A stretch of DNA of 64,000 nt from an uncultured virus (IMG/VR IMGVR_UViG_3300024351_000022) (taxonomy: Duplodnaviria; Heunggongvirae; Uroviricota; Caudoviricetes): IMG/VR virus record IMGVR_UViG_3300024351_000022; one strand, given 5' to 3'. The notes under the pieces were generated by a model. It saw only the letters and a list, made by a program, of their open reading frames with translations, was not told the origin of the DNA and did no database searches. The translations under genes were made by a program, and so were the position numbers. Shown here one piece after another: positions 4,801 through 23,408 of the stretch. Numbering within the stretch: the first letter of the stretch is position 1; every line of letters starts with the position of its first letter.

Positions 4801-5509
4801 TGATGTAGGGGATGATGATGGTGGGCTGGGTGACCCAGCGCTTGTCGTCATCGTCAAAGAACCGTCCGCAGAGTGAGTCTGCGATGCGGAGGTCATTGGT
4901 CTTGCGGTCCCGGACTGCGATCCCGGAGCGAAGCAGCACGTTCGGCGGGAATTTATCCAAGATGGGAGTGAGGAGTTCCCGGTTGGCAGGGATGGCGCTC
5001 TTCAGGCCGAATGCCTCTTGCCAAGAGTCGGGCATGCCTCGTTTCTCCCTCGTCTCGGCTCGGTGCTCGTCGGTGAGGGTGAGAAGTGACCATGCTTCCT
5101 CGTAGGGATTTCGGCCGATGTCCGGTAGCTGGATGAATTTCGGCGTGTTGAATTCGTCCTCATGGTCTGCCTGTGTTTCATCGATCTCCGTCCAGAGGTG
5201 GCTCAGTCCGGAGGCGTCAAGCAGCTTGCGAATCGCCTCAGTCTCGGTGAGTTCATCATGGAGTGCGATGAAGGCGACTTCATCCAGCCAGCCAGCGGCC
5301 CGGCATTTGAGGTTCTGGCAGGAGCATCTCCATGCTGCGTCCTCATCTTGGGAGAAGAGCAGTGACTTGGGGGATTCGCAAAATGGGCAGTCCGCTCGCT
5401 GGTCTTCGCCGATGGTGTGCCCCCGCACTTGGAAGAGAGTTGGCAGCACGCCAGCTCGGGTATGGGTGGCCTGGCGGATGGCTTGGCGGAAATACTCGCG
5501 GGCTTTCAT
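1820..5509 (-). CDS. Primase-helicase (Zn finger, TOPRIM-like domain, P-loop ATPase)
   Basis: CPFC...CSC Zn finger; EGEFK and VVFDNED TOPRIM motifs; Walker A GEKGSGKT, Walker B LHIDE; start MKAREYF overlaps the upstream stop (ATGA). Confidence 0.88.
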   Translation of the reverse strand: MKAREYFRQAIRQATHTRAGVLPTLFQVRGHTIGEDQRADCPFCESPKSLLFSQDEDAAWRCSCQNLKCRAAGWLDEVAFIALHDELTETEAIRKLLDASGLSHLWTEIDETQADHEDEFNTPKFIQLPDIGRNPYEEAWSLLTLTDEHRAETREKRGMPDSWQEAFGLKSAIPANRELLTPILDKFPPNVLLRSGIAVRDRKTNDLRIADSLCGRFFDDDDKRWVTQPTIIIPYITEDGRIELLRPHKKSLSNSRWREQEEVADHYEKLHNNLRIPYGKHLLGMPRAETWKHHAVIGEGEFKGMALAICGVPGLYFQGIHYFLQNRSHRQAITDTVECLRNADVRMTLVVFDNEDKSHKPFHERFETETFARFTAECLEDSGFTSLWGNLPDHWRENNKADWDSRLAYHVRERGINDGIDAAKDEFLQFLERRHGKDATMRPSPRQLQFEAGTFQPDPKEDVIQQALHRLRYEPDIFVGGKTELSIASEIENWCHAKYAHRLKVKKIAQELRKCFGGYYIIKPPSEDMEKRAIAALDDINENIAALEGDPNADENELRRYRAAKQAAYTILYKLPKSFTDFTAISKYKILAYDDKGEPRLDRLITFIDANGRRSRAYQMPADRMSSSQELRKFFISMGGYHWSGNQDECDKWVRHIDIENHQREITEIDTYGWNKDHKLYLFLDCAIADGKGEEPGTFLFPKKDGIVWHQGRGFRNSDVMANFSHTPPSLFPGAKDPRAAFNDIDWEQEKRDAQPIWKAAISDFKASFGGYAGYALVAGILQYLTHPEAKPAFGKPSISIQGEKGSGKTKTTGFGMRLLGFHSYDPISLGSTKVGIERAFTRFCGLPLHIDEWRNDKIDSRMLDLFISAYNELTQHKGTPQGGKLTRAMTPMTPAITTGEDSAVDSALRSRYIRIIAAPHYGQQIPENETESQRAARDQAREIERNQRFDRMMRDSDDYHRIGRLIIRERKKFSRIALEFMRAFKSNPKVIDRISTSRARENIGLFVGAIAAAYEILHGHSPLSLATDHPDFVEFRAMNEWFINHGEESNTEIEKDVFRNRFFSECVTMISRKSIPGTEKYIRVLRVQMDGSHKDGFKITPIPDGLMTNTGRLVVVIRPSELFSDYQVDRRRREGSGSPIAQSNIQGELKSQTYWIKPSKKEREHRFRIPKDGSHRGLWVLDWKSMDEDLRSIFIPIYEAELAPHDMVVAQDGETAEGIHATTQQIPF

Positions 5510-5877
5510 GCTCTGCCCTCCCCTCCGTTCTTTTCTCTCATGAAGCGGTCGTAGGGGTGTTCGATGCCTGCGCGGCTCAGTAGGGTGCGGACGGCCTGGC
5601 GGTTGTCGCACCCGTGAAGGATGGAGATGAGGCCGATGGTGTCGCCGCCGGAGTTGGCTGGGCAGGAAGACTTGAAGCAGCGAAACGAGTCCTCGCTGAT
5701 GATCATCTTCTGCCGCCCCCCGCAGCATGGGCAGATCCTCGCATAGCGTTTGCCTGCTCCTGCGCCGGTGATCTCGGTGCCTTGTTCTTGCAAGATGGCG
5801 GGGACGGTGCAGCGGGCGGAGGACTTGGCGAGGGTGATGGCGTCGCGCAGCTCGTCCCGGTAGTCGTTCTGGCTCAT
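5506..5877 (-). CDS. CHC2-type primase zinc-finger protein
   Basis: CPCC...FRCFKSSC...GGDTIGLISILHG...QAVRTL. Confidence 0.8.
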   Translation of the reverse strand: MSQNDYRDELRDAITLAKSSARCTVPAILQEQGTEITGAGAGKRYARICPCCGGRQKMIISEDSFRCFKSSCPANSGGDTIGLISILHGCDNRQAVRTLLSRAGIEHPYDRFMREKNGGEGRA

Positions 5878-9898: not shown

Positions 9899-9904
9899 GA
9901 TGTC

Positions 9905-11461
9905 ATGAGTAAGTCAAAGTTCGGGCCGCCGGTGGAGGATCTTGATGCTTGGTTGCAGGCATTGGAAAACTGCGGGTGTTGTCCGCCGCCGCGTTGCTGT
10001 CCTCCCCGTTTGGAGTGCCGGGGGGTCACGGCATCGGCCGTCGTTGGGGCATGGCATCCGATGGATTGGGAGCCGCCATCGGATTCGGGTGAGATGCCGG
10101 AGTTTCCTGTTCTCTATCTCAGCAGGAAAAAAAGGACCAGGTCGAAGGTGGAGGGGAATTCCACGACGACATACAATTACAAGGTCAGGAACAAGGGGAC
10201 CGGAATGATTGTTCGTGAGACGGAGAGGTCCACGACCATCACGGTGAGCAGGGAGATCGGGGTCTTCGATGAAGTGGATGCCAATGTCTCGTCGGAGAAC
10301 TTCATTCATTTGATCGAGCGGCGTAATGGTCCGTGGGACTGCTGGGAGGAAATTCCGGAATGCACGGTGGAGGGAGTGGTGACTCATCGTTACGAGAGAG
10401 ACGAAATTTTCTCGGAGTCGGAGGAAACATCCGGGGAGATTGATTCGGATACTGACGTGGAAGAAACGGAGAAGCGTTGGTCGCGCACGGTCAGTCATGT
10501 GGAAGGAGTGAATAGCGAAGACTCGGACGGGTGCCTGGAGATCGATACAAGAAACACGGTTCCGGAGAATCTTTCGTGGTTGGAGAGCGTGGCGGTGTTG
10601 TGCCTCGGGGATTCGGATGACTACTCGGAGGAGGAAACCGTGACGGCGACCTACAAGCTGTTTCGCTCAACCCTTATCGAGACGGGTTCTGCTACGGAAG
10701 ACACGGGTTGGATTGATCGGCCCGCTGGCGGTGAGCAACGCACGGTGGATACATGCAGTGGCTATCGATCCAGTATCTTTGAGAACGAGACATTCCTCTC
10801 TGACCCGGTGACAAAGGTTGAGGCGGCCACTGCCGCGAGGGAGAAGCTGGTGGATTGGATGCAGCGGATCGAGCAGCTTTGTGGCAGTGATTCCTTTTCC
10901 GATGTGGAGGAGGAATGCTCCGCGTTGTTGCCTGTTTGCAGTGCGGAATGCGTGGCCAAGATGATGTTGGATTGGCCGACCGAGGGGGATACCACGGGTG
11001 CGGCGGTGTACACGGCGGACATCGCGGCGTTTCAATACAGGTGGAAGCTGGATCAGTGCTGCCGGAATCAGAAGATCCGCATGGAGTGGGATGAGGTCTT
11101 CTATCCCAGGGAGTTCTTGGAGTGGCTGGAGGTTGCCCGCATGGAATCTGAGCCGTCTGATCCTCCGGTGCTGCCCACCATCACCAAGAAGGCGTGGGTA
11201 TGGGAAGGGGAGCCGCCGGGCTGTGATGAATTTGCGAGCGGATTCGATGATGAGGAAAGGTATGCGAATGAGACCATGTGGTCGCCGTGGGGTCTGCCGG
11301 TGCTGGTGCCGCCGGGGCAGCAAGGCATCGTGGCATTGAGGAACCTGCTTGTGGACTGCAATCCGGATAGCCCGTGGGGGTCGAAGCCGGAACTCATGAT
11401 TGGGGTGTTGCCGAGGTATGATGAATCGGATCTTGATGAGAACGAAGACACGGAGATATGA
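9905..11461 (+). CDS. Acidic, Cys-rich hypothetical (virion-associated?) protein
   Basis: 518-aa ORF, CGCCPPPRCCPPRLEC N-terminus, follows the tail gene. Confidence 0.6.
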   Translation: MSKSKFGPPVEDLDAWLQALENCGCCPPPRCCPPRLECRGVTASAVVGAWHPMDWEPPSDSGEMPEFPVLYLSRKKRTRSKVEGNSTTTYNYKVRNKGTGMIVRETERSTTITVSREIGVFDEVDANVSSENFIHLIERRNGPWDCWEEIPECTVEGVVTHRYERDEIFSESEETSGEIDSDTDVEETEKRWSRTVSHVEGVNSEDSDGCLEIDTRNTVPENLSWLESVAVLCLGDSDDYSEEETVTATYKLFRSTLIETGSATEDTGWIDRPAGGEQRTVDTCSGYRSSIFENETFLSDPVTKVEAATAAREKLVDWMQRIEQLCGSDSFSDVEEECSALLPVCSAECVAKMMLDWPTEGDTTGAAVYTADIAAFQYRWKLDQCCRNQKIRMEWDEVFYPREFLEWLEVARMESEPSDPPVLPTITKKAWVWEGEPPGCDEFASGFDDEERYANETMWSPWGLPVLVPPGQQGIVALRNLLVDCNPDSPWGSKPELMIGVLPRYDESDLDENEDTEI

Positions 11462-13074
11462 ATGACCCGTTTGACGTTGAACGATGGGGTGGAGCGAAGT
11501 TTGCCAGGCCGGAGACGATCTGGACGGAGGGTTTTGGATCGCTTTCACTGGAGATGCCTGCGGTGTCCATGTCGATCTCCGCGAGGTTGCTGCCTGCGGA
11601 TAGGGCGGTCGATTATTACATGGGGGTGGAGGTGCCATCGCGTGGATGTGTGGCCTGCGGGTGGGGGGATAGGAAAGTGGGATCGTCGCGCATCCCGGTG
11701 GGTCCATTCATGGCGCAGCAGGCGGTGGGGCCTGTGATCCGGCCCGTGGTCTTCACTATGCGGTGGGGCAGTGAATGGTGGCTGGATGAATGTGCTCCGA
11801 CGCTGGATGCGTGGTGTGAGCGGCACTCATTGGATCTCAGGGTGGTCGGGGAGTGGGATGCGGCGTATCCTTCGCCCAAGTTTGCCTTTGTGGACATGCT
11901 GCGCGAGTTTATCGCCAGCGGGGAAGAGTGGATGATGTATGTGGATGCTGATGTGGTGGTGCATCCGCTGGCTCCATTGCCTCCGGATCTGGGGGTGGGC
12001 TTGCACGCATGCACGGATAAGCTCCAAAGGCGCAAGGGGCGTGGGCTTTGGGCGGAGTGGTGCCAGGAAAGGTTTGGGGAAGCGCCGGGGGATGAATACT
12101 CATACAGAAATGCCGGGATCTGGCTATGTCATCGCGATGCGGCCGCCGCCTTCCTCGGCATCATTCGCGAGCCCTATCACGAGGGCATCATGGAACAGCA
12201 CCATTGGAACTGGTGGCTCAGCCAGGCGCAAGCTGGTGGTGTCTTCCATGTGGGCGAGATGCCGGTGGAGTGGAATCGTGTGCCGGACGCCGTGGGGCCG
12301 GGATGGATGGTGCATATCTACGGCAAGAACAAGGAGCGTGCCATCACCCGGTTCCGTGAGCGGGGATACATCCCGGATGCGGTGAAGAAAGTAGGGAAGA
12401 TGCCAGCGGTCCCGGACTTCGGGGAAAAGGCCATCGTGTGGCCGTGGATTTCCACCAAGGCGGATTGGGATGAGCTATGGTTTTCCCTGCGCTCGGTGCA
12501 GAAGCATTGGCGGGAAGAAGGCTGGAAGCTGGTGCTCTTGGGAGATAGGCGGCCATCGTGGTGGCCGGGCGAGTTTGTAAAATGTGGCGAGTATGAGCAT
12601 GCGCTTTGGGTTGGCTTGCACTGCGCCAGCCGGGTGCTGTGGATGAATGATGACATCTTCATGTTGGCGGATCAGGGGCCGGATGACTTTTCCGTGGTGC
12701 CTGCGGTATCGAGGATGGAGAGCAAGCTCGGCAGGACTCTCGTGGCGGGGAATGTCTGGCGGCGTGGCCTGGGGCAGGTGCTGATGAGGCTGCATCACCA
12801 TGGGCGGCCGGCGGTGAACTATTCCACCCACACCCCCTACCTCTATGAGAGGGAGCGGGTGGATGAGATTTTCCGGCGCTTTGGGATCTTCTGGAAGATT
12901 CCCTTCGAGACGGCCTATCACGGGTGGTATCAGACCCCATGGGAGGAAATGCACAAGCGCAAGGCGAAGTCTCCGCATGACATGGGCCGGAAGCTGTGGA
13001 TCAACCCGGCATTCGCCCAGGTCACGCAGGCGTTTCGGGATGAGATGGCGTCCCGCTTCGGTCAGCCCTTGTAG
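11458..13074 (+). CDS. Glycosyltransferase (GT-A, DxD) fused to a Stealth-like domain
   Basis: YVDADVVV, YRNAGIWL, EQHHWN; then ELWFSLRSVQKH, WMNDDIF, STHTPY. Confidence 0.7.
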   Translation: MNDPFDVERWGGAKFARPETIWTEGFGSLSLEMPAVSMSISARLLPADRAVDYYMGVEVPSRGCVACGWGDRKVGSSRIPVGPFMAQQAVGPVIRPVVFTMRWGSEWWLDECAPTLDAWCERHSLDLRVVGEWDAAYPSPKFAFVDMLREFIASGEEWMMYVDADVVVHPLAPLPPDLGVGLHACTDKLQRRKGRGLWAEWCQERFGEAPGDEYSYRNAGIWLCHRDAAAAFLGIIREPYHEGIMEQHHWNWWLSQAQAGGVFHVGEMPVEWNRVPDAVGPGWMVHIYGKNKERAITRFRERGYIPDAVKKVGKMPAVPDFGEKAIVWPWISTKADWDELWFSLRSVQKHWREEGWKLVLLGDRRPSWWPGEFVKCGEYEHALWVGLHCASRVLWMNDDIFMLADQGPDDFSVVPAVSRMESKLGRTLVAGNVWRRGLGQVLMRLHHHGRPAVNYSTHTPYLYERERVDEIFRRFGIFWKIPFETAYHGWYQTPWEEMHKRKAKSPHDMGRKLWINPAFAQVTQAFRDEMASRFGQPL

Positions 13075-13550
13075 AGCGGTTTCTTGGGGTGCTCTTGCTC
13101 GGAGGGTTTCAGTGCTTCGACCCACGCTTTGGCCATCGTCCGGGCGTGGACGCTGCTCGCGAAGAGCCGGGCAAAGCTGATGAACAGGTCGCGGTCGGGC
13201 GGGCTTAGAGCCTCCATGGACTCAAGCACGGCCGGGAGTGCTGGATTGCCTGCCATGTAGCGGAATTCATCGTCGCGGATCTTGGCGATGTCCTTCGAGA
13301 GTTCCGTCGGTGTTGTCTCCCATGTCACATGGCAGAGCGCCCATAGGGCCAATAGGTGGGCGAGTTCCTTCTCGTCGCGGCAAAGCGGGCCGTAAGATTT
13401 TTCAATCGTTGGCCACTCCACCAGGGACTTGCTCTCCGCTTTGTAGATGGTGCTGCGGGAGACGCCTCTCTCCTCGGCCAGGGCGGAGATGCCGATGTTG
13501 TGCCTTTTTCGGAGCTTGCGGAGGTAGTCGGTGAGTGGGTGGTTCGTCAT
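13062..13550 (-). CDS. XRE-family repressor (CI-like)
   Basis: LRKLRKRHNIGISALAEERGVSRSTIYKAE; divergent from the early operon. Confidence 0.8.
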   Translation of the reverse strand: MTNHPLTDYLRKLRKRHNIGISALAEERGVSRSTIYKAESKSLVEWPTIEKSYGPLCRDEKELAHLLALWALCHVTWETTPTELSKDIAKIRDDEFRYMAGNPALPAVLESMEALSPPDRDLFISFARLFASSVHARTMAKAWVEALKPSEQEHPKKPLYKG

Positions 13551-13689
13551 CGTGAGTCTCTGCTTCCCTGACGGATCGCTGGGCGGAATTATTCACGGAT
13601 CGTGGAAAAAACGCAACGGCTTTCCCTGTATTACACGATACGCGGAAATCCGATGTTGACGATTCGCGGATTCCGCGCAACATGGACGC
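13551..13689. promoter_or_regulatory. Divergent immunity/control region
   Basis: TTGACG at 13656; related palindromes CGCGGAAATCCG (13641-13652) and CGCGGATTCCGCG (13665-13677). Confidence 0.6.
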
Positions 13690-13923
13690 ATGGCAAGCGA
13701 AACGCGCACGAGCCTTTACAGGCTACTGAGGGAAACGGCCCGCGCCTACCTCGACGCAAGGGAGGGAGAGGACAGCAGGGAAGAAACGGTGAAGATTCGT
13801 CATGAGGTGGATTGTCTGCTTGCTCTTGGGCAGGCGGATGAGTTCTGCCCGGTGACGGCGTTCAATGAACATTCTGCCAAGACCAGCAAGTCTGGGCGGA
13901 TCATGGTGGGAGGTGGAGCATGA
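13690..13923 (+). CDS. Small early hypothetical protein
   Basis: First gene of the rightward operon, ATGA-coupled. Confidence 0.6.
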   Translation: MASETRTSLYRLLRETARAYLDAREGEDSREETVKIRHEVDCLLALGQADEFCPVTAFNEHSAKTSKSGRIMVGGGA

Positions 13924-14186
13924 TCCGGGTCTCGAAAAACGTGGCCAAGGACGCGGCAGGCAAAGCAAGAAAGAGGGTGGCAGGGAAGAAGGCCAAGCCT
14001 GCCCCTGCCGATCCGCTTGCCGGGCGGGAGGTGCTCGTGCCTGTGATGGTGCGCGTGCTGGTCCCGGCGGAGATTGTCGATGACATCGATGCCGCCCAGG
14101 CGGCCGTGGAGTGGCTCATGGAATCCGGGATCAAGGTGGATGGTGCGCCCGTCGCGTTTGATCTCATTACCCCCCAGGTGCGATGA
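13920..14186 (+). CDS. Hypothetical protein
   Basis: ATGA overlaps on both sides. Confidence 0.6.
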   Translation: MIRVSKNVAKDAAGKARKRVAGKKAKPAPADPLAGREVLVPVMVRVLVPAEIVDDIDAAQAAVEWLMESGIKVDGAPVAFDLITPQVR

Positions 14187-14956
14187 ATGAGGTATCCTGC
14201 TACGCGGTGCCGCTTACCCTCGGCCATAGGGCGTGCGATATGGTCATGGTCTCCATGGCGGCGACCTTGGGAATCCCTGCCGCATCGGCCATGGGTTTCC
14301 TCCATCGTCTCTGGCATGCTGTCGCCATGGACCCGCAAGGGCATCGGGCGGTCCCTGCCGAACGTTCGGCTTGGCCATCGTCTCGCGATGCGTGGGTGCT
14401 TGAGGCCGGTGCTGGTTGGCTGGGGGATCGCGGGGAGCTATTCACCCTCTGGGTGGACTCCGGGGTTATTGAGCTGCATCCCGATGCTGGGGAGGATGCG
14501 CAAATGCGGGTGGTGTTGGTCGGCTGGGCGGATGCCAACCGTCAAGGGCCGGGTGCCAAGAAGCTCGCTGCGCTTGGGGGTATCGCCAAGGCGCGCAACA
14601 GCGCGAGGAAAGTGGCCGAGGGCGATGCGGCGGAGCTGCTGGAGTGGTATCGCCGGAACCGTGTGGGGCTGCACGCGGAAGCGGGTATCGAGAGAGTCAA
14701 GGAGGCGGTGATCTTCGTGCGTCAGATTGAGCGGCTCATGCGGTGGGTGCCAGCCACCGAGAGGGCGTTCATGGAGGGGGCTGTGGAGAAATCCCTCAAG
14801 GCGTTGGACGCTCTTGGGCAAGACAAGGATATGTTCCTGAGCTGGCTGGTGGCAAATCGGGGCCGGGATATCATCCCTGGCCGCGTGGATCTCCTGCTCG
14901 GCGAGGTAGGGAAACTCCACGCTCACGCAAAATCTTGGATGGAGGCCATGCAATGA
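14183..14956 (+). CDS. Hypothetical protein resembling phage replication-initiator N-termini
   Basis: MGFLHRLWH...AGWLGDRGELFTLWVDSG...VGWADAN pattern; coupled. Confidence 0.55.
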   Translation: MNEVSCYAVPLTLGHRACDMVMVSMAATLGIPAASAMGFLHRLWHAVAMDPQGHRAVPAERSAWPSSRDAWVLEAGAGWLGDRGELFTLWVDSGVIELHPDAGEDAQMRVVLVGWADANRQGPGAKKLAALGGIAKARNSARKVAEGDAAELLEWYRRNRVGLHAEAGIERVKEAVIFVRQIERLMRWVPATERAFMEGAVEKSLKALDALGQDKDMFLSWLVANRGRDIIPGRVDLLLGEVGKLHAHAKSWMEAMQ

Positions 14957-16026
14957 TGAAGGCTCTAACGGTAAAACAGCCATGGGCTTCCCTTATTATC
15001 TATGGGGGGAAGGATATCGAGAATCGGTCATGGGCTACGGAATATCGTGGCCGGGTTTTCATTACGGCCAGCAAGGGGTGGAACAGCGGTGAGCAAGAGG
15101 CGGCCAAGGGGTTGATTGAGGACAGGAAAATTCCTCAGAAACTTTCGGAAACCTACACAAGGATTAACTGCGGCGGGGTGATTGGAACCGTGGAGATCGT
15201 GGATTGTGTCAAGCAGAGTGACAGTCCGTGGTTTGTGGGTCCTTTCGGTTGGGTGCTGAGGAATCCGCGCCCGCTGGTTTTCAGGCCGATGAGTGGTGCC
15301 TTGGGGTTATGGGATATGGAATACCCGGAGTCTGCGGTGGGAACCTCCCGGGTGCTGTTCCTGGACGTGGACGGCGTTTTGAATGGTGGCGTCGGCCGTG
15401 GGTTGGATGAGGTCATGCTTGCTCGACTGGGTTCGATCATCCGTCATGCGGATCCGGCCGTGGTCATCTCCTCCTCGTGGAGGATTGAGGCGGAGCTGCT
15501 GCGGCGGATCACTCTTGCGGTGGAGAGGCTTGGCGGGCGCGTCGTCGGTCATACCCCGTTGCCGGAGGAGGTGGGGCAGGGGAGTTGCAGGATCATCGCT
15601 GGAAGGGAGCGCTGGGTGGAGATTCAGGATTGGCTGGATGCCCATCCTGTGGCGGATGGGGAAACTCGCAGGGTGGTGATATTGGATGACGAGGCCGAGA
15701 TGGGTCCCTTGGGTGAATATCACGTGAGGACGGAATACGAAAGTGGCTTGCAGCGGCAGCATGTGGAGCGGGCTTTGCGCTTGCTGCTTGATCCGCCGAG
15801 GAAAACGGGTCCTACGGTATTGGAGTTGGGCAAGTGGTATGTCCTGCGCTCGGCCAGGGGGATCAGGTGGAAAGTCCGGCTGGTGACGATCAGCCCCTGC
15901 GGCAAATACTGTCGGGTGAGTTACTCTGGCAGCGCTGCGGGAGGTCGCCAATGTCTCGCGTCAGAGCTTGAGGACTGGGAGGAAAAGGCCGAGGCGGGCG
16001 GCCGTCTATGGAAGGAGGAGGCGTGA
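14953..16026 (+). CDS. ASCH domain fused to a Swiss-army-knife-type HAD phosphatase
   Basis: KALTVKQPWASLIIYGGKDIENRSW (ASCH); FLDVDGVLN, VVISSSWR, VILDDE (HAD). Confidence 0.82.
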   Translation: MMKALTVKQPWASLIIYGGKDIENRSWATEYRGRVFITASKGWNSGEQEAAKGLIEDRKIPQKLSETYTRINCGGVIGTVEIVDCVKQSDSPWFVGPFGWVLRNPRPLVFRPMSGALGLWDMEYPESAVGTSRVLFLDVDGVLNGGVGRGLDEVMLARLGSIIRHADPAVVISSSWRIEAELLRRITLAVERLGGRVVGHTPLPEEVGQGSCRIIAGRERWVEIQDWLDAHPVADGETRRVVILDDEAEMGPLGEYHVRTEYESGLQRQHVERALRLLLDPPRKTGPTVLELGKWYVLRSARGIRWKVRLVTISPCGKYCRVSYSGSAAGGRQCLASELEDWEEKAEAGGRLWKEEA

Positions 16027-16493
16027 GTAAGTCAAAGAGCGAAGAAGCCATGGCTAAGCGGGCATCTACCGTAAGGAATTGCGGTAATTGCAGATGGGCA
16101 AGTTGGGAGATGACAGAGAAGGGGAATCCTCGTAAGTCTATCGCGGGCAAATGCACGTATCCAATCCCTGACCTGCCGCCCATGCCATACGCTGTGATTG
16201 TCGAGACACCGCGAAAAAGGTTAGTGTGGGCAAACAAGGGAGCCGATTGTCCAACGTTCAGCGAAAAAGCCAAGTCAAGCCCATCGGATGAGATGGCATG
16301 TTCTGCGTCTTCTCTTTTGAGTGAAGCGAAGGAACGCCTATGCGACGCATCCGTCTGCAACCGAATGGGTAAGCCCGCACATTCCGCGGGATACGTGCGA
16401 TTGGCCATGGAGATACTGGCAAAAGCGGAAAAGTCGCTGCTGGGCCTTCCGGGGAACGCCAAAGCGCAGCCACCGACGAGAAAGGAAATCTAA
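16023..16493 (+). CDS. Hypothetical Cys-containing protein; its C-terminus runs into the first attC-like site
   Basis: GTGA-coupled start; CGNC motif; stop overlaps the Lar start (TAATG). Confidence 0.6.
   Translation: MSKSKSEEAMAKRASTVRNCGNCRWASWEMTEKGNPRKSIAGKCTYPIPDLPPMPYAVIVETPRKRLVWANKGADCPTFSEKAKSSPSDEMACSASSLLSEAKERLCDASVCNRMGKPAHSAGYVRLAMEILAKAEKSLLGLPGNAKAQPPTRKEI
16281..16306 (-). repeat. attC-like half-site remnant (R''-L'' arm only)
   Basis: CCATCGGATGAGAT-GGCAT-GTTCTGC resembles the right arms of the complete sites; partner arm not found. Confidence 0.4.
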
Positions 16494-16620
16494 TGGAACC
16501 CCCCTGCAAAACAGAAGACGACTGCCCCACGCCCACATGGTGCCGTGGTAAAGACCGCTGCCCCAAGCGGTATATCAAAGATAAAGCCAATGGGCGGTTG
16601 GCTGGCGCGGATTGTTCGCT
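16451..16620 (-). repeat. attC-like recombination site 1
   Basis: GGGGAAC-N6-GCGCAGCCACCG ... CGGT(T)GGCTG(G)CGC-N5-GTTCGCT; two unpaired bases. Confidence 0.8.
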
Positions 16621-16792
16621 CTTGCCGTGCCCGTTTTGTGGCTCTGAAGACGTGGGGTATTACGCCTATGCAAATGTCATCCGCTGTCATAACTGTGGGA
16701 CGGAAGGCCCGATTGACTCCGAACGCGATCAGGGCCGCGAGGTTGCCGCCGAAGTTTGGAATCGTAGAGCGAACGACCAAGGTATGCCATGA
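16493..16792 (+). CDS. Lar-family restriction alleviation protein
   Basis: LLPCPFCGS...VIRCHNCG...AAEVWNRRA. Confidence 0.8.
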   Translation: MEPPCKTEDDCPTPTWCRGKDRCPKRYIKDKANGRLAGADCSLLPCPFCGSEDVGYYAYANVIRCHNCGTEGPIDSERDQGREVAAEVWNRRANDQGMP

Positions 16793-16865
16793 ATGCCGCG
16801 CCCTCCAGCCCCGCCTCGCCAATGACTCCCACGCGGCAGTCATTGGCATCACCGCCTAGTTCGCC
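16768..16865 (-). repeat. attC-like recombination site 2
   Basis: AGCGAAC-N6-GGTATGCCATGA ... TCAT(T)GGCAT(C)ACC-N5-GTTCGCC. Confidence 0.85.
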
Positions 16866-17355
16866 CCGTTCGCTGAGTGGGCACCAGTCGGCCTGCATGA
16901 AGTCGGAAGTGTGGCTCACGCCACCGGAGATCCTGCAAGCACTCGGCACGTTCGATCTCGACCCATGCGCCCCCGCCGTGAGGCCGTGGGAGATGGCCCG
17001 TGACCATATCAGCTTACCCACCGATGGACTGGCAGCGGAGTGGCGGGGCCGCGTGTGGCTCAATCCGCCATTCGGCACCAAAGCAGCGGCATGGCTCCGC
17101 AAGATGAAGGCGCACGGGAACGGCATCGCGCTAATCCCGGCACGAACTGAAACAGCGATGTTCTATGAAAGCGTGTGGGGCGGTAGCGATGCTGTGTGCT
17201 TCCTCAAAGGCCGCCCTCATTTCCACCGCGTGGACGGCACGCGGGCACCATTCAACAGCGGGGCACCGATCTGCCTCGTAGCCTACGGACTCGACAACGT
17301 GGAGGCACTGGAACGCGCCTCGCTCGGAGTCGTGGTGCGTTGGGCGAACGCATAA
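16789..17355 (+). CDS. Phage Dam-type DNA N6-adenine methyltransferase
   Basis: WLTPPEIL, FDLDPCA, VWLNPPF, LIPARTET, FLKGR; alternative start at 16897. Confidence 0.85.
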   Translation: MNAAPSSPASPMTPTRQSLASPPSSPRSLSGHQSACMKSEVWLTPPEILQALGTFDLDPCAPAVRPWEMARDHISLPTDGLAAEWRGRVWLNPPFGTKAAAWLRKMKAHGNGIALIPARTETAMFYESVWGGSDAVCFLKGRPHFHRVDGTRAPFNSGAPICLVAYGLDNVEALERASLGVVVRWANA

Positions 17356-17430
17356 GCTGATGGACGCCGCCCTCACAGCCCGAATCCAAGATGGAACGTC
17401 CCCGGCGTTCCATCCAGCGCCTTGTTCGCC
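17343..17430 (-). repeat. attC-like recombination site 3
   Basis: GGCGAAC-N6-GCTGATGGACGCCG ... CGGCGT(T)CCATC(C)AGC-N5-GTTCGCC. Confidence 0.85.
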
Positions 17431-18001
17431 TGCGTTGTTGGACGTGTTTTGCGGCGTCGGAGGATGGACGAAAACGTTCATGGCTCGCGGCTGGAACTGT
17501 GTCGGCGTGGACCTCGCGGACTTCTCCGCCAGCTATCCCGGCCAGTTCGTGCAAGCGGATGCGCTGTCCCTGGATCACCAATGGATCAACCAGTTCGACG
17601 CCGTGCTGATGTCCCCGCCGTGCGAGGAATACGCCCGCGCCTGGCTGCCGTGGCTGCGTGGCGACAAGACCCCGGCCAAGTGGGCAATCGATCTGCTGGA
17701 ATGGTCCGTGGCACTCTGCGACCGACCGGGCCGCATGGTGGAATGCTCGAACTTCTCCGCCCGCCACGTCAAGGGCGCGGCCCGCGTGGGAAGCTACTCT
17801 CTCTGGGGTGACGTGCCCCTGCTCATGCGGCAAGTGCCGCGTGGGAAAATGGCGAAGTCCGGAATGCGCCCCGAACTACGCGCCGAGATCCCTGACGAAC
17901 TGGCCCGCAGCGTGGCGGAGTGGTTCGAGGCCGGTCTCGGATTCCGTCTGGCGAACGCAAACAGTGCTGCCACCGGCAGCGAAAGGAACGATCATGAGTG
18001 A
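17360..18001 (+). CDS. Short DNA cytosine-C5 methyltransferase-like protein
   Basis: LDVFCGVGGW (motif I), MSPPCEEY (motif IV); ATG lies inside the attC arm. Confidence 0.75.
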   Translation: MDAALTARIQDGTSPAFHPAPCSPALLDVFCGVGGWTKTFMARGWNCVGVDLADFSASYPGQFVQADALSLDHQWINQFDAVLMSPPCEEYARAWLPWLRGDKTPAKWAIDLLEWSVALCDRPGRMVECSNFSARHVKGAARVGSYSLWGDVPLLMRQVPRGKMAKSGMRPELRAEIPDELARSVAEWFEAGLGFRLANANSAATGSERNDHE

Positions 18002-18049
18002 GAAACTGGAAATCGAAACGCCGGTTGCCGCAGCCACGCCTTGTTCGGC
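17950..18049 (-). repeat. attC-like recombination site 4 (slightly degenerate)
   Basis: GGCGAAC-N7-GTGCTGCCACCGGC ... GCCGGTTGCCGCAGCCAC-N5-GTTCGGC. Confidence 0.75.
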
Positions 18050-18287
18050 TTGCTCGGGAATTCCAGTGAGCGGGACAACTGAAGCACAAGCCCGACAAAT
18101 CAAGGGCAACTCCTATCGCGTGTATCACGGTGGCGAGGGCAGCTCGTTCACAGATCACAACGATCTGGTGATGGCCCGTGCCTCTGCGTGTGGCCACCCG
18201 AATGCCGTCATCCACAACCTGCGTCCATTCAGTCAGCCGAACGCAATAGGTGAGGCACGGCGAGACAAGACGCCGCCTCAACAATAG
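17994..18287 (+). CDS. Small hypothetical cassette protein
   Basis: Start inside attC site 4 after GAAAGGA; stop inside site 5. Confidence 0.55.
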   Translation: MSEKLEIETPVAAATPCSACSGIPVSGTTEAQARQIKGNSYRVYHGGEGSSFTDHNDLVMARASACGHPNAVIHNLRPFSQPNAIGEARRDKTPPQQ

Positions 18288-18322
18288 ACTTTCCCGCCGT
18301 TGCCTCGACCGTCTTGTTAGCC
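18236..18322 (-). repeat. attC-like recombination site 5
   Basis: Minus strand reads GGCTAAC-AAGAC-GGTCGAGG...CCTCACC-TATTGC-GTTCGGC; textbook attC layout. Confidence 0.88.
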
Positions 18323-18353
18323 GTTCGGGGGACGCGGAAACCACAACAAACAT

Positions 18354-18671
18354 ATGGAAACCACAGAAGAAGCAGTAGGCAGAACCACGGAACTCCCGTT
18401 CGGCAATGCAATCGAAGCCCTCAAAGCAGGGCGCCGCGTGTCCCGCAAGGGATGGAATGGAAAAGGCATGTATCTCTGGCTGCTCCCCGCTGCCATGGTG
18501 AAAGCCGAATGGTGCCGCGAACCTCACTTGAAAGAGGTAGCGGAAGCCAATGGAGGTGAAATCGAAGCCCTTGGATCGATCCGCATGATGACCGCAGACA
18601 AGAAAGTCCTAACGGGCTGGCTCGCCTCGCAGACTGACATGCTGGCCGAAGACTGGGAAATCCTCGACTGA
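18354..18671 (+). CDS. DUF2829 / Thoeris anti-defence Tad2-like protein
   Basis: FGNAIEALKAGRRVSRKGWNGKGMYL...GWLASQTDMLAEDW. Confidence 0.88.
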   Translation: METTEEAVGRTTELPFGNAIEALKAGRRVSRKGWNGKGMYLWLLPAAMVKAEWCREPHLKEVAEANGGEIEALGSIRMMTADKKVLTGWLASQTDMLAEDWEILD

Positions 18672-18708
18672 CCAAACATGCCGGACATGGGGCGAGTGCT
18701 CTGTGTCC

Positions 18709-18807
18709 GGCGAACGCACAAGGTCTGCCATGAATGCCGCGCCCTCCAGCTCCGTCCTCGCCAATGACTCCCACGCGGCACTCATTGGCAGCACCGCCTT
18801 GTTCGGG
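18709..18807 (-). repeat. attC-like recombination site 6 (near copy of site 2)
   Basis: GGCGAAC-N6-GGTCTGCCATGA ... TCAT(T)GGCAG(C)ACC-N5-GTTCGGG. Confidence 0.85.
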
Positions 18808-19563
18808 CTTGCGCCGTTTCACCTTGTCGCGTTGAGCGGTGGCAAAGACTCTACTGCGCTCGCTCTTGAGTTGCGCGAACGCCATCCTGAAATCCCGTTC
18901 CGCTACTACATCACGCCGACAGGATGGGAACTGCCGGAAATGTTCGACTGGTGGCAAGAGCTTGGCGAAAGACTCGGATCGAAGATCATCCCTGTGATGC
19001 ACACAAGCCTTGGAGAGTGCATCAGAAACAACAAGATGCTCCCGAACTTCCGCGCTCGGTTTTGCACGCGGCAAATCAAGATCGAGCCAGCCAGAAAAAT
19101 GATGGCCGCGCTCGCTGCTCAAGGCGAAGTGAATCATTACGTCGGCCTGCGGGCGGACGAAGAAACCCGCCTTGGCGGGATCTTCGATGACATCGGAATT
19201 GTGAATCGTCACCCGTTCCGCGAATGGGGCTGGGGAGTAAATGACGTGTGGCAATGTCTCCAACGTCACGGACTGGCGGAACGCATCCCTGAGCGGACAG
19301 ACTGCGACGTGTGCTATCACCAGCAAATCGGCGAATGGTGGAAGCTCTGGACGAACCACCCTGACCGCTGGATGCGTGGCGAGAATCTGGAAATCGAAGT
19401 GGGCGGCACGTTCCGCACGCCAGGACGGGACACCTGGCCGACATCAATGCGCGAACTGCGCCAAGCCTTTGAGTCCGGCAGGATACCGAAAAGCGAGCGG
19501 CAGCCGGAACTATTCTCTCGCGGAACCATGACGGGGGGCGCGTGTCGCGTGTGCTCGTTATGA
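18730..19563 (+). CDS. PAPS reductase-family (PP-loop) protein
   Basis: LSGGKDSTAL, RFCTRQIKIEP, GLRADEETR, CDVCY. Confidence 0.85.
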   Translation: MNAAPSSSVLANDSHAALIGSTALFGLAPFHLVALSGGKDSTALALELRERHPEIPFRYYITPTGWELPEMFDWWQELGERLGSKIIPVMHTSLGECIRNNKMLPNFRARFCTRQIKIEPARKMMAALAAQGEVNHYVGLRADEETRLGGIFDDIGIVNRHPFREWGWGVNDVWQCLQRHGLAERIPERTDCDVCYHQQIGEWWKLWTNHPDRWMRGENLEIEVGGTFRTPGRDTWPTSMRELRQAFESGRIPKSERQPELFSRGTMTGGACRVCSL

Positions 19564-19567
19564 ATTG

Positions 19568-19592
19568 CCCGAACAGTGTGCTTATGCACGGC
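19568..19592 (-). repeat. Terminal core site / attC half-site closing the array
   Basis: CCCGAAC exactly complements GTTCGGG at 18801; followed by an L-box-like CTTATGCACGGC with no partner arm. Confidence 0.6.
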
Positions 19593-19611
19593 AGCGCAAA
19601 CCAAAATCCAG

Positions 19612-19950
19612 ATGGGACTGAAACGTAAAGGATTACAGGCACGCGCCGTCAAGCGGAAGGCGCTGTCGCGCAACCAGGTTGCGGCCAAAGAGAGGCTTCG
19701 CAAAGAGCGATCAGGGGGCGAGGAAGCGCTTGCTGATCGCCTCATGGCCGAGGCGGAAGATTGGGCGCGGCGGAATCCACTGCCGAAACTTCCGCCTGCG
19801 GCCAAAATCAGGATCGAGATTCCGGGGCTGCCTACCAAAGTCATCCGTGCTCGTAGGTGGCACACGGGAGAAGTGCTTGCGGGGAATCGGATCACGACCG
19901 CCAAGCAACTCGGAAGGCGCATTGGGATGCTTCTGGATCAGTTTCTTTGA
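19612..19950 (+). CDS. Basic hypothetical protein upstream of terminase
   Basis: ORF MGLKRKGLQAR... Confidence 0.5.
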   Translation: MGLKRKGLQARAVKRKALSRNQVAAKERLRKERSGGEEALADRLMAEAEDWARRNPLPKLPPAAKIRIEIPGLPTKVIRARRWHTGEVLAGNRITTAKQLGRRIGMLLDQFL

Positions 19951-19996
19951 GTCAAGCCGCTTGCGCAGTGGGGAGCGTTTCGATAGGTAGAACAAT

Positions 19997-21775
19997 ATGA
20001 GCATCACTTTGCGCCAATCAGAGTTGGAGGAGGCTATTCGTGACCCGGCCTTTGGTTTGTGGATGTTGACCGGCGTGGAACTGGATACGTTCCAGTCCGC
20101 CGCGCTGAAGACGATGTGGTTCACCAAGGAGGTGATCGATTCCAGTGCCATCAACACGGGTAAAACGTTCCGGCTCATTGGGTGGTGTATCCTGCGGGCG
20201 GTCCTGCTGCCGAATCCGCCGTCATTCCGATATCCCGGCCGCCTCATCGGGGCGTTTTACCAGGAGAAGGGATCGGTGGCGGAAATTTTCGTGAAGGAGA
20301 TGGATGCCATGATCTCCTTGCCGGGCGCTGGTTTGCTGCGGCGCGAGCTGAAGCGCCAGGTGCGCGGCCGGCTCGGCTACCACGAGGATGAGAACACGAT
20401 CAATTACCATTTCAGGAATGGCTCCTGCATCAGTGCTCCGGCGCTGAATGTGATGAGGAAATCAAAGACGATGGCGGGCCGCAGATACAGTGATGGCTAC
20501 GTGGAGGAATACACGCAAATCGACTCGGACTCGGATGCGCTGGATGAGCAGGTGCTGGACCGTGTGAACCGCGTGGATTTCAATCCGAAACACCCGGTAT
20601 GGTCGCCGCACATCATCCTTTCGGCCCACGCGGAGTGTCCGGACTCGCACCCGTCCTATGCGCGGATCAAGCAATACAGGGAGCTGATCCGCAATGGATC
20701 GCAAGACCACGCATTGATCACCTCCAGCTCGGAGGACTGGAGCGATAGGAATCCCCTTTTCAAGGTGAAGCGCGAGAAGGCGCTGGCGGACAGGCATCGA
20801 GACTCGCTGAAGCAGGGCAAGGCGAAGGTGGCGCAGAAGCACAAGGGTTTGTGGCTGGCTGGTGGGGCGGATTGGTATGACAACGATTTCCGCGACCACT
20901 GCCTGTGCATGGACATCCTACCCGAAAGCAAGGCCATGCCGGGGGCGCTCTATGCGCTGGGCTGGGACACGGCATCCAGCGGCGGGGAGAAGGCGGACTG
21001 GAATGCCGGTGTCACCTGCCGGGCGATTCCGGTGACGGTCAGGCAGCTCGGGCAGCCGGGGGTGATGCCCTTCGAGAATGGAACCTACTATCATATCTCC
21101 TTCACGCATGCCATCGGTGCGCTGGACAAGCGCTCTGCGGAATGCTCCGGGATCATCCATACGCTGCATCGGTGGTTTGGTTACAGCCGAATCGTCATGG
21201 ACGGCGGTGGCGGCGGGCAGATGGTCAAGAAGGATTTGTGGAGATCCGAGCAGATCATCGAGGGAGTGATGGAGCAGGGCGTGGTTGGCCTGTGCGAGTG
21301 GGGCATGGAGCACGTGTATCCCTCGTGCTTGCCCATCATCCAGGAGTTCAAGCCGACCGCTCCGCGTTTGCTGCACACGTGGGACCCGGGCTTCACGCGG
21401 GGCATGGATGGTTTGGTGGATAACATGCACCGGAAAATGCGGGATGCTTTCGAGACCAGGACCGTGGCCTGGCCAGCCACGGCCGAGATGCGCGGCGCGG
21501 CGGGGATGCGCGGCATGGGGAGAAAGGAGAGGGAGGCGCAGGAGTGGCTGGATCGGGCGTGGGGGCAGTTTGGCTCCGTGCGCATCCGTGCAGAGAAGGA
21601 TGGCCGGGCAAAGCTTACGAGTAATGGGTTCCATTCCTTCGAGGCGAAGGGTAAGCGAAAGAAGGACCTCGCTTACGCGGCGCTCTATGCGTTCATCGGC
21701 ATCATCTCACTGATCACGGACCCTGAGGTGGGGGGGGGTGAGTCGGCGGATGACGAGGATATGTATTCGAGCTGA
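19997..21775 (+). CDS. terL: Terminase large subunit
   Basis: Walker A INTGKT, GYVEE Walker B-like, RNase H-like LGWDTA, IVMDGGGGG, KDLAYA; precedes the portal. Confidence 0.8.
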   Translation: MSITLRQSELEEAIRDPAFGLWMLTGVELDTFQSAALKTMWFTKEVIDSSAINTGKTFRLIGWCILRAVLLPNPPSFRYPGRLIGAFYQEKGSVAEIFVKEMDAMISLPGAGLLRRELKRQVRGRLGYHEDENTINYHFRNGSCISAPALNVMRKSKTMAGRRYSDGYVEEYTQIDSDSDALDEQVLDRVNRVDFNPKHPVWSPHIILSAHAECPDSHPSYARIKQYRELIRNGSQDHALITSSSEDWSDRNPLFKVKREKALADRHRDSLKQGKAKVAQKHKGLWLAGGADWYDNDFRDHCLCMDILPESKAMPGALYALGWDTASSGGEKADWNAGVTCRAIPVTVRQLGQPGVMPFENGTYYHISFTHAIGALDKRSAECSGIIHTLHRWFGYSRIVMDGGGGGQMVKKDLWRSEQIIEGVMEQGVVGLCEWGMEHVYPSCLPIIQEFKPTAPRLLHTWDPGFTRGMDGLVDNMHRKMRDAFETRTVAWPATAEMRGAAGMRGMGRKEREAQEWLDRAWGQFGSVRIRAEKDGRAKLTSNGFHSFEAKGKRKKDLAYAALYAFIGIISLITDPEVGGGESADDEDMYSS

Positions 21776-21860
21776 GCCGAACGTTCGGCTTGGTTTCGGG
21801 TGTTCTGCCCGGCGGAACAAACCTTGACCTTTGGGCGGAGTTCGTGCATGGGGATGGCCG

Positions 21861-23408
21861 ATGACCATTCATGCCGGTGGAGATGGGGAGGATCGCAAGC
21901 GCCAGATCGGCATGGCCGTGATGGCGATGAACGAGGCGCTGGCATCCCGTTACGCTCAGGAGGAGGCGGAGTTTATCGCGGGAGAGGCTGCGATCATGGC
22001 GTCATCCCCCATGGATCTTTCCTGTGGGGACTTGTGTGGCGTGGCGCTCACCGGCGGGACGGGGAGATCCATGATGGAAATCCAGAAGTTCCGCAGGAAT
22101 TTCTATGGGGAGACCCCGCGAAATCTGTTTCGTTTTGCCCGCTTGCAGGCGGAGCGGAACTGGTTTGTGCGGCCGGTGGTGGAGGACACGCTTGCGATTT
22201 TCAATCACGGTTTCGACGTGCAGGGGGCGGAGGCCAAGAAGTGGCTCAGGGACACGCGGACGAATCTGCCGAAGCTGCCGCTGGCGAGGATTGCCCGCGA
22301 GGCGATGTATGAATACCTCGTGAATACCAACGTGGTGGCCATGTGGCGGCGGGCATCGAGGGAGGGAGCGGTGCCCTACGTGATGATTCTGGATACCAGC
22401 ACCGTGGAGTATGAGATGGTCGCCGGGGCGCGAATGATCAAGGTGGACTACTCGACATCCCGGCGGAGGAAACTCCCGGAGAACATGAAGACAGTCCTGG
22501 GGGAAAGGGCATTCAAGGCCATCGTGGGAGGGAAGAGGCTGGAGATTTCGGAAGGGGATCAGGAGTGGGACTTCGAGGTGCTGACCGGCGGGGTGGAGTC
22601 CTCATTTGCGGTTCCTGCGGTGACCGTGATCCAAGACGATCTTGAGTTTGTGGAGGCGGTCAAGGTCGGTGACTGGAACGGGGCTTATCGCCGCCGCATC
22701 ACCTTGCTGCACGCCACCAAGGGCTACGGGGTGCAGAGCGGGACAAACGCGGGCAGCGTGCGGACCCATGCCAAGCGGGGGCAGTTGCAGTCCATCAATG
22801 AGTGGATGAAGAAGCTCAACGGGCACCACAACATGGCGACGAACTTCGACCAGGATTTCAAGAACATCACCTTCCCGGCCGAGTTCTTCAAGGATGACAT
22901 CGTAGCGCCATCGCTTGCTCGCCTGCTGTTGTTCGGCGGCATTCCGGCGGTGGCTCTGCTGAAAAGCGAATCGCAGATCAATGGGGTATCCCCCTATCTC
23001 ATGCTGATTCTGCGTGCCAGGGCGTTCGAGTTCCGCCGCCGCTTCCAGTGGTTCCTTCACAGGATCTTCAATGCGGAGTCATTCATCGGGCGCATGGGCG
23101 ATGCTCCGCCGCTGGTCCCGGAGTGGTCCGACCGTCTTCTTTACACGATCAAGGAGATGCAGGAGCGGACCCAAACCTTGCGAACCTCGGGTGCGAGTCG
23201 CAGGACCTTGCGGGAGGAAGCCGGTCTGAATCACGCGGAGGAATCGCGGCGCAACCGTGATGAGATCCAAGATCCGGATGCCGTGGTCCCCGTCTTCGAG
23301 GACAATCAGGGACTTTCTCAAGCCCGCTACCCGGGCATCTATCCGGTGGCGGCAGGTCAAAGCTCAGGGTCTCAGGGAGATCCAGGCCGACCATCCGCCC
23401 AAGCCTGA
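21861..23408 (+). CDS. Portal protein (putative)
   Basis: About 515 aa directly after the terminase, helical. Confidence 0.65.
   Translation: MTIHAGGDGEDRKRQIGMAVMAMNEALASRYAQEEAEFIAGEAAIMASSPMDLSCGDLCGVALTGGTGRSMMEIQKFRRNFYGETPRNLFRFARLQAERNWFVRPVVEDTLAIFNHGFDVQGAEAKKWLRDTRTNLPKLPLARIAREAMYEYLVNTNVVAMWRRASREGAVPYVMILDTSTVEYEMVAGARMIKVDYSTSRRRKLPENMKTVLGERAFKAIVGGKRLEISEGDQEWDFEVLTGGVESSFAVPAVTVIQDDLEFVEAVKVGDWNGAYRRRITLLHATKGYGVQSGTNAGSVRTHAKRGQLQSINEWMKKLNGHHNMATNFDQDFKNITFPAEFFKDDIVAPSLARLLLFGGIPAVALLKSESQINGVSPYLMLILRARAFEFRRRFQWFLHRIFNAESFIGRMGDAPPLVPEWSDRLLYTIKEMQERTQTLRTSGASRRTLREEAGLNHAEESRRNRDEIQDPDAVVPVFEDNQGLSQARYPGIYPVAAGQSSGSQGDPGRPSAQA

Follow-up and report, generated by a model that had tools for sequence, protein, structure and literature searches.

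A probable integron cassette array in a phage-like genome

The 64,000-nucleotide stretch of DNA analysed here (referred to throughout as the window; uncultured virus record IMGVR_UViG_3300024351_000022) belongs to a freshwater phage-like genome whose + strand carries, at positions 16451-19574, an array of six cassettes made up mostly of anti-restriction and anti-defence genes. We consider it very likely that these units are integron-type cassettes present without an integrase of their own, that the sense strand of their genes is the bottom strand in the attC recombination sites that accompany them, and that an integron integrase (IntI) supplied by the host would act on them. Integrons are bacterial gene-capture devices. 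The carrier in this case is a temperate phage-like genome with relatives in genomes of the family to which a Luteolibacter metagenome-assembled genome (MAG) belongs, and its phage-like character is apparent from a tape-measure domain, an ordinary phage integrase gene (48618-49766) and matches to PHROG profiles.

A cluster of attC sites that lacks an integron integrase is termed a CALIN, as set out by Cury et al. 2016, where IntI is also noted in Verrucomicrobia (PMC4889954). The window array holds six attC sites, while the sole tyrosine recombinase of the 64 kb scores 25.6 bits on the integron integrase profile TIGR02249 against a cut-off of 265; with no integron integrase in the window, the array is therefore classed as a CALIN. 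It is not a complete integron, which would have intI with attI beside the array, as no IntI was found among the window proteins and the right flank of the array resembles attI weakly. The Verrucomicrobia integrons at the loci of the Luteolibacter MAG (G003, described below) differ in this respect, having both intI and attI, whereas the window has no recognisable intI or proven attI.

Core sites are complementary across each gene

The sequence-only reading of this DNA had proposed that the 7-nt core sites at the two ends of each cassette are mutually complementary, and that the match runs across each gene rather than within each hairpin. All twelve 7-mers on which this proposal was based lie at the coordinates it gave, and the pattern is borne out. 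The right core of each hairpin (GTTxxxx) precedes a gene and is complementary to the left core (xxxxAAC) that follows that gene at 7, 7, 7, 7, 6 and 7 of 7 positions, and the inverse core arrangement of integron sites (AAC ... GTT, in R' and R'') is found at all six window sites. The cassette limits that follow from these cores are 16457|16773|17348|17955|18241|18714|19573, with genes assigned by Pfam, NCBIfam (TIGR) and PHROG profile searches.

The first cassette, c0 (16457-16773, + strand, as are all those that follow), joins element E0 to a Lar-family restriction-alleviation gene (open reading frame (ORF) 16493-16792; PF14354, 3.9e-10; TIGR03655, 43.7 bits against a cut-off of 39.6) and pairs GTTCGCT at 16614 with AGCGAAC at 16768 (7/7). 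Cassette c1 (16774-17348) consists of E1 and a Dam-family N6-adenine methyltransferase gene (ORF 16789-17355; PF05869; phrog_111, 3.7e-35), with GTTCGCC at 16859 matching GGCGAAC at 17343 (7/7). It is followed by c2 (17349-17955), in which E2 precedes a second methyltransferase gene (ORF 17360-18001; phrog_363, 9.6e-12, with weak Pfam methyltransferase matches) and GTTCGCC at 17424 pairs with GGCGAAC at 17950 (7/7). Cassette c3 (17956-18241) combines E3 with an ORF (17994-18287) for a 97-aa protein that matches no Pfam, NCBIfam or PHROG profile; its cores are GTTCGGC at 18043 and GCCGAAC at 18236 (7/7). A Tad2-like (Thoeris anti-defence 2-like) gene (ORF 18354-18671; PF11195, 1.1e-22) lies with E4 in c4 (18242-18714), whose cores, GTTAGCC at 18316 and GGCGAAC at 18709, agree at 6/7. 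The last cassette, c5 (18715-19573), contains E5 and a PAPS-reductase-family gene (ORF 18730-19563; PF01507; phrog_424, 6.5e-34), with GTTCGGG at 18801 complementary to CCCGAAC at 19568 (7/7).

In total, 41 of 42 core positions are complementary across genes against 34 of 42 within elements, where the two cores of the same hairpin match at 5, 6, 7, 6, 5 and 5 of 7 positions. Only 6 of the 720 possible re-pairings of right with left cores reach a score of 41, and these do no more than permute the three identical GGCGAAC cores. The same pattern is seen when the cores are pooled with those of independent arrays (13 loci in all, with 31 non-redundant adjacent pairs): 26 of the 31 pairs are 7/7 across the gene, compared with a shuffle mean of 3.7, and none of 20000 shuffles reaches 26. 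By comparison, 7/7 complementarity within an element occurs in only 5 of the 46 unique elements known from the window and related loci. The pooled pairs are diverse in sequence (GTTGGGC/GCCCAAC, GTTCTCC/GGAGAAC, GTTAGAG/CTCTAAC and others). As the motif GTTCGSC is frequent in the window (59 matches against 27 expected, largely contributed by an unrelated 14-nt palindrome), significance rests on the pairing pattern and not on the motif. Rejoining the cassettes in silico, a check suggested along with the original proposal, restores the R box to 7, 7, 7, 7, 6 and 7 of 7.

The elements have the geometry of attC sites

On the + strand, each element begins with a 7-nt core ending in AAC, followed by 6 (at times 5 or 7) unpaired nucleotides, a stem and a variable middle; the returning arm of the stem presents a bulged T, 6 bp, a second bulge and 3 bp, and is followed by 5 unpaired nucleotides and a 7-nt core starting with GTT. 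This layout closely parallels the published description of the attC bottom strand, in which AAC in R' is cleaved between A and C, spacers are 5-6 nt, overall length is 57-141 nt, and the extrahelical bases of the opposite arm are usually G16 and a conserved T23/24, sometimes with a third at 20, leaving a 6-bp stem between the outermost two (PMC5027507).

A geometry scanner built on these features (AAC and GTT enclosing a 14-nt stem that has 2-3 bulges on its 3' arm, with spacers of 5-7 nt on the left and 5-6 nt on the right) returned 5 sites in the 64-kb window, all of them on the + strand within 16451-18807, against 0.2 per 64 kb in shuffled windows. As a positive control, it recovered 3 sites of classical polarity beside an IntI gene (318.8 bits) at locus L034. 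The scanner missed E3, which was added by eye.

The clearest example is E4 (18236-18322, 87 nt), with a stem score of 14/14 and the sequence GCCGAAC GCAATA GGTGAGGCACGGCG ... CGCCG T TGCCTC G ACC GTCTT GTTAGCC; counted from its 3' end, the bulges fall at G16 and T23, the positions published for attC (PMC5027507). E2 (17343-17430, 88 nt) likewise has a 14/14 stem, with bulges at C16 and T23 and an ATG at 17360. E1 (16768-16865, 98 nt) shares the C16 and T23 bulges and contains a Shine-Dalgarno-like AAGG ahead of an ATG at 16789, while E5 (18709-18807, 99 nt), with an ATG at 18730, duplicates E1 at 91-94% identity, an indel of 1 nt separating the two. The element fitted by eye, E3 (17950-18049, 100 nt), encloses a ribosome-binding site and the ATG (17994) of the next gene; its stem sets GTGCTGCCACCGGC against GCCGG T TG CC GCAG C CAC. 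At the left end of the array, E0 (16451-16620, 170 nt) is a probable attC-like site consisting of GGGGAAC, a 6-nt spacer, a stem with T and G bulges, GGATT and GTTCGCT. It contains the Lar start codon (16493), its left core forms the left junction between array and backbone, and no independent copy of it was found. The upstream backbone gene (window 16008-16493) has its last 12 codons and stop inside E0, past the junction at 16457, which indicates that insertion of the array altered the C-terminus of that protein. At the right end, the array closes with a terminal half-site, CCCGAA|C (19568-19574), which is 7/7 to GTTCGGG at 18801 and forms the right junction with the backbone.

Over the 46 unique elements, T occupies the far bulge in 45 even though the scanner left this base free, and the near bulge is filled by C (36 elements), G (7), A (2) or T (1). 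Of the spacers, the right one measures 5 nt in 43 of the 46, and the left one is of 6 nt in 31 elements, of 5 nt in another 9 and of 7 nt in the other 6. Stem scores range from 12 to 14 of 14, two bulges are present in 37 elements and three in 8 (the eye-fitted E3 being the remainder), and 44 of the 46 elements are 87-132 nt long. Minimum-energy folding did not return the attC fold for E2 or E3; the fold described here was set by the geometry scan and by eye.

The same cassettes recur in other phage backbones

A search with a 21-mer of E1 returned 2 viral and 15 metagenome loci; of the latter, L011 and L016 were chance matches, leaving 13, and L004 and L009 are identical to the window. The 21-mer had no match in the genome contigs set. 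Counting the window itself, cassettes were found with the same boundaries in different contexts (five for the Dam cassette and two for the PAPS-reductase cassette, with breaks at AA|C), a check that the sequence-only reading had proposed. The Dam cassette recurs in L002/L018, L003, L005 and L014, with BLAST homology starting at 16769-16774 and ending at 17349-17360; the aligned block is 16774-17349 in L014 and 16769-17350 in L003. The PAPS-reductase block 18721-19574 recurs at 92.5% identity in L017, where homology ends at 19574, and a contig of the independent sediment run X18 covers 18529-19574 before diverging from the window.

In each copy, the Dam gene is headed by the same E1-type attC (window, L002, L003, L005 and L014), while the DNA to the left of the cassette differs from exactly AA|C onwards; in L014 the left junction reads ...TACAT|CGACC, without any AAC. 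The attC that comes downstream of Dam is a different one in each of the window, L018, L003 and L005, making four in all. The constant element ahead of Dam, together with the varied DNA to its left and the varied elements after it, indicates that a hairpin travels with the gene downstream of it. An E2-like copy similarly precedes another methyltransferase gene in L002/L018, L017 and L025. Outside the array, no matches to window ORFs were found in L018/L019, L003, L005 or L017, except for one weak domain hit in L019, and in GenBank phages only distant Dam homologues and no array were found. The cargo of the other arrays is dominated by DNA methyltransferases. At least two of the window cassettes circulate among unrelated phage backbones.

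One could instead regard the array as a fossil that a single capture from a host integron (by illegitimate recombination, say) brought into the phage, where it is now fixed, so that its complementary cores are a historical footprint. Neither the window nor the other array-bearing viral contigs encode IntI, the R box of the Tad2-like cassette stands at 6/7, a Dam homologue in L020 (86% identity) lacks both cores and the Dam gene of L025 is truncated, all of which would suit this explanation. It is difficult to reconcile, however, with a Dam cassette that is 100% identical over 583 nt between L003 and L018 when the protein encoded by their right-flank gene is just 64% identical, or with the different cassettes found next to this common flank gene (a C5-type methyltransferase cassette in L018 and an N6_N4 methyltransferase cassette in L003). 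Nor would a fixed array be expected to show five different left neighbours for the same cassettes, a variant contig that breaks at 19574, or stems, bulges and cores that are well kept in 46 unique elements. We thus regard a fossil array as unlikely.

Several further observations concern these loci. Some E1-type cassettes also abut DNA without a GAAC core, at the L014 junction (~105-118; TACAT|C) and at the left junctions of L017, L007 and L010 (CCATA|C, CATAA|C and CCTAA|C), which suggests either insertion at secondary sites or decayed neighbours. In L020, the Dam homologue (9900-10480) ceases to match the window within a few bases of the cassette limits; its tail-to-tail neighbour, at 10477-11553 on the - strand, is a tyrosine recombinase gene (PF00589, 1.7e-13). 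A joint of 17614 to 20769 in one contig, with 21 letters on its short side, was set aside as coming from another organism or another copy, as were short loose ends at 17325, 17412, 18023 and 18293-18326, which were taken for matches from other organisms or copies.

Cassette polarity and start codons inside attC

The footprint claimed by the sequence-only reading, that of circular cassettes integrating by crossover at G/TT in R', holds as far as the type of cassette and a site-specific crossover at a conserved triplet are concerned, but the polarity is the opposite of the one it implied. With bottom-strand attC geometry on the gene strand, the crossover falls at AA|C of the left core instead of the GTT to the right, and this AA|C reads G|TT when taken on the minus strand. 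Complementarity across the gene arises in either polarity, and the logic of the original claim is therefore sound. The unit is thus C + attC + gene + xxxGAA, with each hairpin belonging to the gene downstream of it. In classical cassettes the ORF lies on the top strand with attC 3' of it, whereas all six window ORFs lie on the strand with bottom-strand geometry. Classical polarity is typical of cassettes and not a defining feature, but it is in this respect that the array departs most from them.

One consequence of this arrangement is that the attC holds the start codon in 5 of the 6 cassettes and encodes the first ~20-40 residues of the protein, with a Shine-Dalgarno-like motif ahead of the start in E1 and E3. 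Stop codons often fall in the attC of the next cassette, as with the TAA of Dam (17353-17355) in the E2 spacer and the TGA of the second methyltransferase gene (17999-18001) within E3. E1-type elements have a conserved ATG, 21 nt in from where the left core begins, and from it an open frame continues into six different downstream genes. Because of a 1-nt indel, the right arm is read in different frames in E1 and E5 (...PMTPTRQSLASPP vs ...ANDSHAALIGSTALFG), such that the Dam and PAPS-reductase genes both stay in frame. In a general test for in-element starts, the sense strand gave 28 of 33 and an antisense control 20 of 33, open frames being too common in this GC-rich DNA to discriminate; the case for a start inside attC rests accordingly on the E1-type ATG in frame with six genes and on the E1/E5 indel. 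A promoter and terminator scan of 13500-22500 gave nothing above chance, and the array genes are probably read through from upstream, as part of a phage transcription unit on the + strand.

The presence of start codons in the elements, some with a Shine-Dalgarno-like motif, and their location in the 5' region of the ORFs could also be taken to mean that the hairpins are regulatory or translational leaders, or terminators, which have spread with the genes by homologous recombination at short conserved boundaries. An unrelated palindrome with the same half-sites, scattered over the window, might be cited in the same sense. Homologous recombination does not, however, predict core complementarity specific to each cassette at the level found in the pooled arrays, nor a break at the single phosphodiester bond AA|C, nor a bulged T conserved at a fixed distance from GTT, and we hold this explanation to be highly improbable.

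Links to host integrons

A search with the Dam protein identified L025, a locus of the uncultured Luteolibacter sp. MAG (G003), which carries the same kind of array together with the truncated Dam gene. Of the three IntI proteins encoded by this genome, two exceed the TIGR02249 cut-off, at 318.8 and 299.4 bits, and the other scores 237.7 bits. Positions 642-968 of L025 are 100% identical to a cassette at L035 that stands beside attI and an intI gene (299.4 bits). The identity runs from GCATAAC, whose final C is the start of the cassette, to GCCGAAC, after which L035 continues with ~50 nt of attI and the start of intI. As in the window, the ORF of the attI cassette at L035 starts inside its attC and lies on the bottom strand; at L036, the product of the first cassette beside attI is Lar-like and is likewise encoded by the bottom strand. 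At the third locus, L034, the integron is classical, the ORFs being on the top strand. At two of the three intI loci of G003 (L035 and L036), then, the ORF of the attI cassette runs toward intI on the attC bottom strand, an orientation that the Pc promoter at attI could not express. The attC sites of the G003 intI loci share the geometry of the window array.

IntI is present above the cut-off in 89 of the 201 genomes of the G003 family and in 0 of 14 control genomes. The 592-aa backbone protein of the window has relatives in 3 of these 201 genomes, G177 (75% identity), G194 and G003, all of which encode IntI above the cut-off; no relatives of this protein were found in viral contigs. The 592-aa protein and a 607-aa ORF of L001 were considered as large terminases, but family searches gave no support for this and the two proteins are not alike. 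Within L025, the intervals 1091-1490 and 1585-2070 appear to hold genes on the opposite strand, and ahead of the truncated Dam gene lies an attC-like site that is short (~66 nt) and has the position-16 bulge only.

The right flank of the window array (19575-19611, +), which begins AGTGTGCTTATGC... and lies ahead of the next backbone gene, shows a weak likeness by eye to the attI side of the G003 junctions. This was seen by setting CAGTGTGCTTATGC (window 19574-19611, to the right of the last cassette) against CAGGGTGTTATAGCC at the L035 attI (reverse complement, from ~684). The corresponding flank in two related phages reads CAAAGCATTATC (L018 ~2860-2880) and CAACGCATTATC (L003 ~7586-7606). On this by-eye similarity, the right flank may be an attI-like landing pad.

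The host loci also bear on the identity of the recombinase, as the sites could in principle be substrates of an enzyme other than IntI, either the tyrosine integrase of the window (48618-49766) or a Xer-type enzyme. The window does encode both a tyrosine recombinase (PF00589, 1.6e-13) and a serine recombinase, although the former lies 29 kb from the array and is of ordinary phage type (phrog_1, 3.2e-39), and no PF00589 match was found in the viral contigs G001 and G002 (both fragments) or among the ORFs scanned in L003, L018 and L025. Moreover, the geometry of the sites is that of IntI substrates to the nucleotide, and an identical cassette stands at the attI of an IntI-encoding integron. These observations make a recombinase other than IntI quite improbable, in our view, and we retain host IntI as the enzyme most consistent with the sites.

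Several results weigh against this reading and should be set beside the evidence above. The integron integrase is missing from the 64-kb window and from viral contigs G001 and G002, and the action of IntI on phage DNA is for this reason something that we infer. The near bulge of the present elements is mostly C, whereas published attC sites usually have G at this position (PMC5027507). At 170 nt, E0 exceeds the published length range, as does one L018 site of 166 nt, and E3 requires two extra unpaired bases and has a minimum-energy fold made of other local hairpins. In the pooled core test, 5 of the 31 adjacent pairs fall below 7/7, one of them being the Tad2-like cassette of the window at 6/7; a targeted search resolved two of the five by finding an intervening boundary with the expected core, and two (L008, and L003 at 4728) have no explanation. 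The host is assigned on the basis of MAG binning and of 3 genomes out of 201. Finally, no circular junctions or excision variants were seen in the assembled contigs of four runs, where rare ones cannot show; stretches that these four contig sets leave uncovered carry no meaning.

A proposed route of cassette exchange

A plausible mechanism would begin with a host-supplied integron integrase binding the folded hairpin of the + strand and cleaving between A and C of AAC. Recombination between two attC sites would excise cassettes as circles, and these could be inserted at the right-hand end of the array or into host integrons at attI. Phages and host integrons would thereby share a pool of cassettes, the phage part of which would be dominated by orphan DNA methyltransferases, Lar and Tad2-like proteins. 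Somewhat more speculatively, we propose that Verrucomicrobiota phages and host integrons share a pool of specifically reverse-polarity cassettes, in which attC doubles as 5' leader and start codon, the phages keep an attI-like landing pad directly ahead of a conserved backbone gene, and host IntI is borrowed during infection or lysogeny to swap anti-defence genes. We offer this extended model tentatively, as a possibility that we would sooner doubt than assume.

A dispersed palindrome and other features of the window

The palindrome aAGCCGAACGTTCGGCTTgg occurs 11 times in the 64 kb (at 693, 6476, 14359, 21778, 28552, 37588, 46116, 51899, 57405, 61956 and 63742), mostly between picked ORFs, and resembles two cassette cores joined without a hairpin. 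The role of an empty insertion site, considered for GCCGAACGTTCGGC, was rejected: the palindrome is missing from both array junctions, and its 10-nt core, CGAACGTTCG, is absent from the other array-bearing loci examined (L001, L003, L018 and L019). The 14-nt palindrome itself is absent from G003, G004 and G194 and occurs once in G177, on the contig with the relative of the 592-aa protein. Candidate roles include those of a terminator, an operator, a partition site or a landing site. For phage CALINs, Qi et al. 2023 note a terminator close by that consists of two GTTRRRY motifs in inverted orientation (PMC9892861), which recalls this palindrome.

Elsewhere, the window encodes two DUF927-domain proteins (1820-5728 and 49905-51071, both on the - strand), an acyl-carrier-like protein (51193-51537), a C5 methyltransferase (53157-55253), the serine recombinase (55793-56665) and a ParB_N-like protein (60078-61646). 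Perhaps the right third of the window constitutes a second mobile element, or a module for lysogeny and replication. An Rfam scan of the window gave no match and a tRNA scan found none.

Relationship to known cassette arrays

Clusters of attC sites carrying anti-restriction cargo, including methyltransferases, are already known from phages. Qi et al. 2023 reported 17 CALINs in phages, with five methyltransferase cassettes and phage attC sites that were recombined by IntI1 (PMC9892861). Methyltransferase cargo, proposed there to act against host restriction, is common to those CALINs and the present array. That paper describes arrays in which all cassettes share one direction as the structure typical of bacteria, whereas here all ORFs lie on the attC bottom strand with attC at their 5' side (PMC9892861). 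Beyond the content of those CALINs, the present analysis adds Lar and Tad2-like cargo, cassettes traced across unrelated phage contigs, and a reverse-polarity cassette of a related array (L025) traced to a host attI. What appears to be new is the reversal of polarity, the placement of the start codon within attC and the connection to a host integron. The literature covered, represented mostly by titles and abstracts and with the supplements of Qi et al. standing outside it, holds no description of reverse-polarity cassettes with an attC-supplied start or of a phage cassette traced to a host attI.

The likeness to classical attC sites (aadA7, VCR), as these are described in PMC5027507, extends to the inverse AAC/GTT cores, bottom-strand cleavage between A and C, bulges at 16 and 23/24 (and 20), a 6-bp stem, R and L boxes separated by 5-6 unpaired nucleotides, a variable terminal structure and a cassette-specific R box. 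The differences lie in the core consensus, which in the window is xxCGAAC/GTTCGxx rather than RYYYAAC/GTTRRRY and thus one position away from it, and in the coding arrangement: unlike classical cassettes, these have an ORF on the bottom strand, which the Pc promoter of attI could not express, and which starts in its own attC and often ends in the next.

Implications

The arrangement has practical consequences for annotation. With the start in the cassette's own attC and the stop often in the next one, gene callers will misplace both N- and C-termini, and integron finders that expect the ORF upstream of attC will pair the wrong gene with a cassette. Small cassettes without assigned function, such as the one encoding the 97-aa protein, are good candidates for new anti-defence functions.

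Recent papers have found that integron cassettes store anti-phage defence systems. The array described here presents the reverse side of this relationship, in that a phage-like genome stores anti-restriction and anti-defence genes in what are very probably integron cassettes. If phages and host integrons do draw on a shared pool, the integron would serve both sides of the arms race between phage and host.

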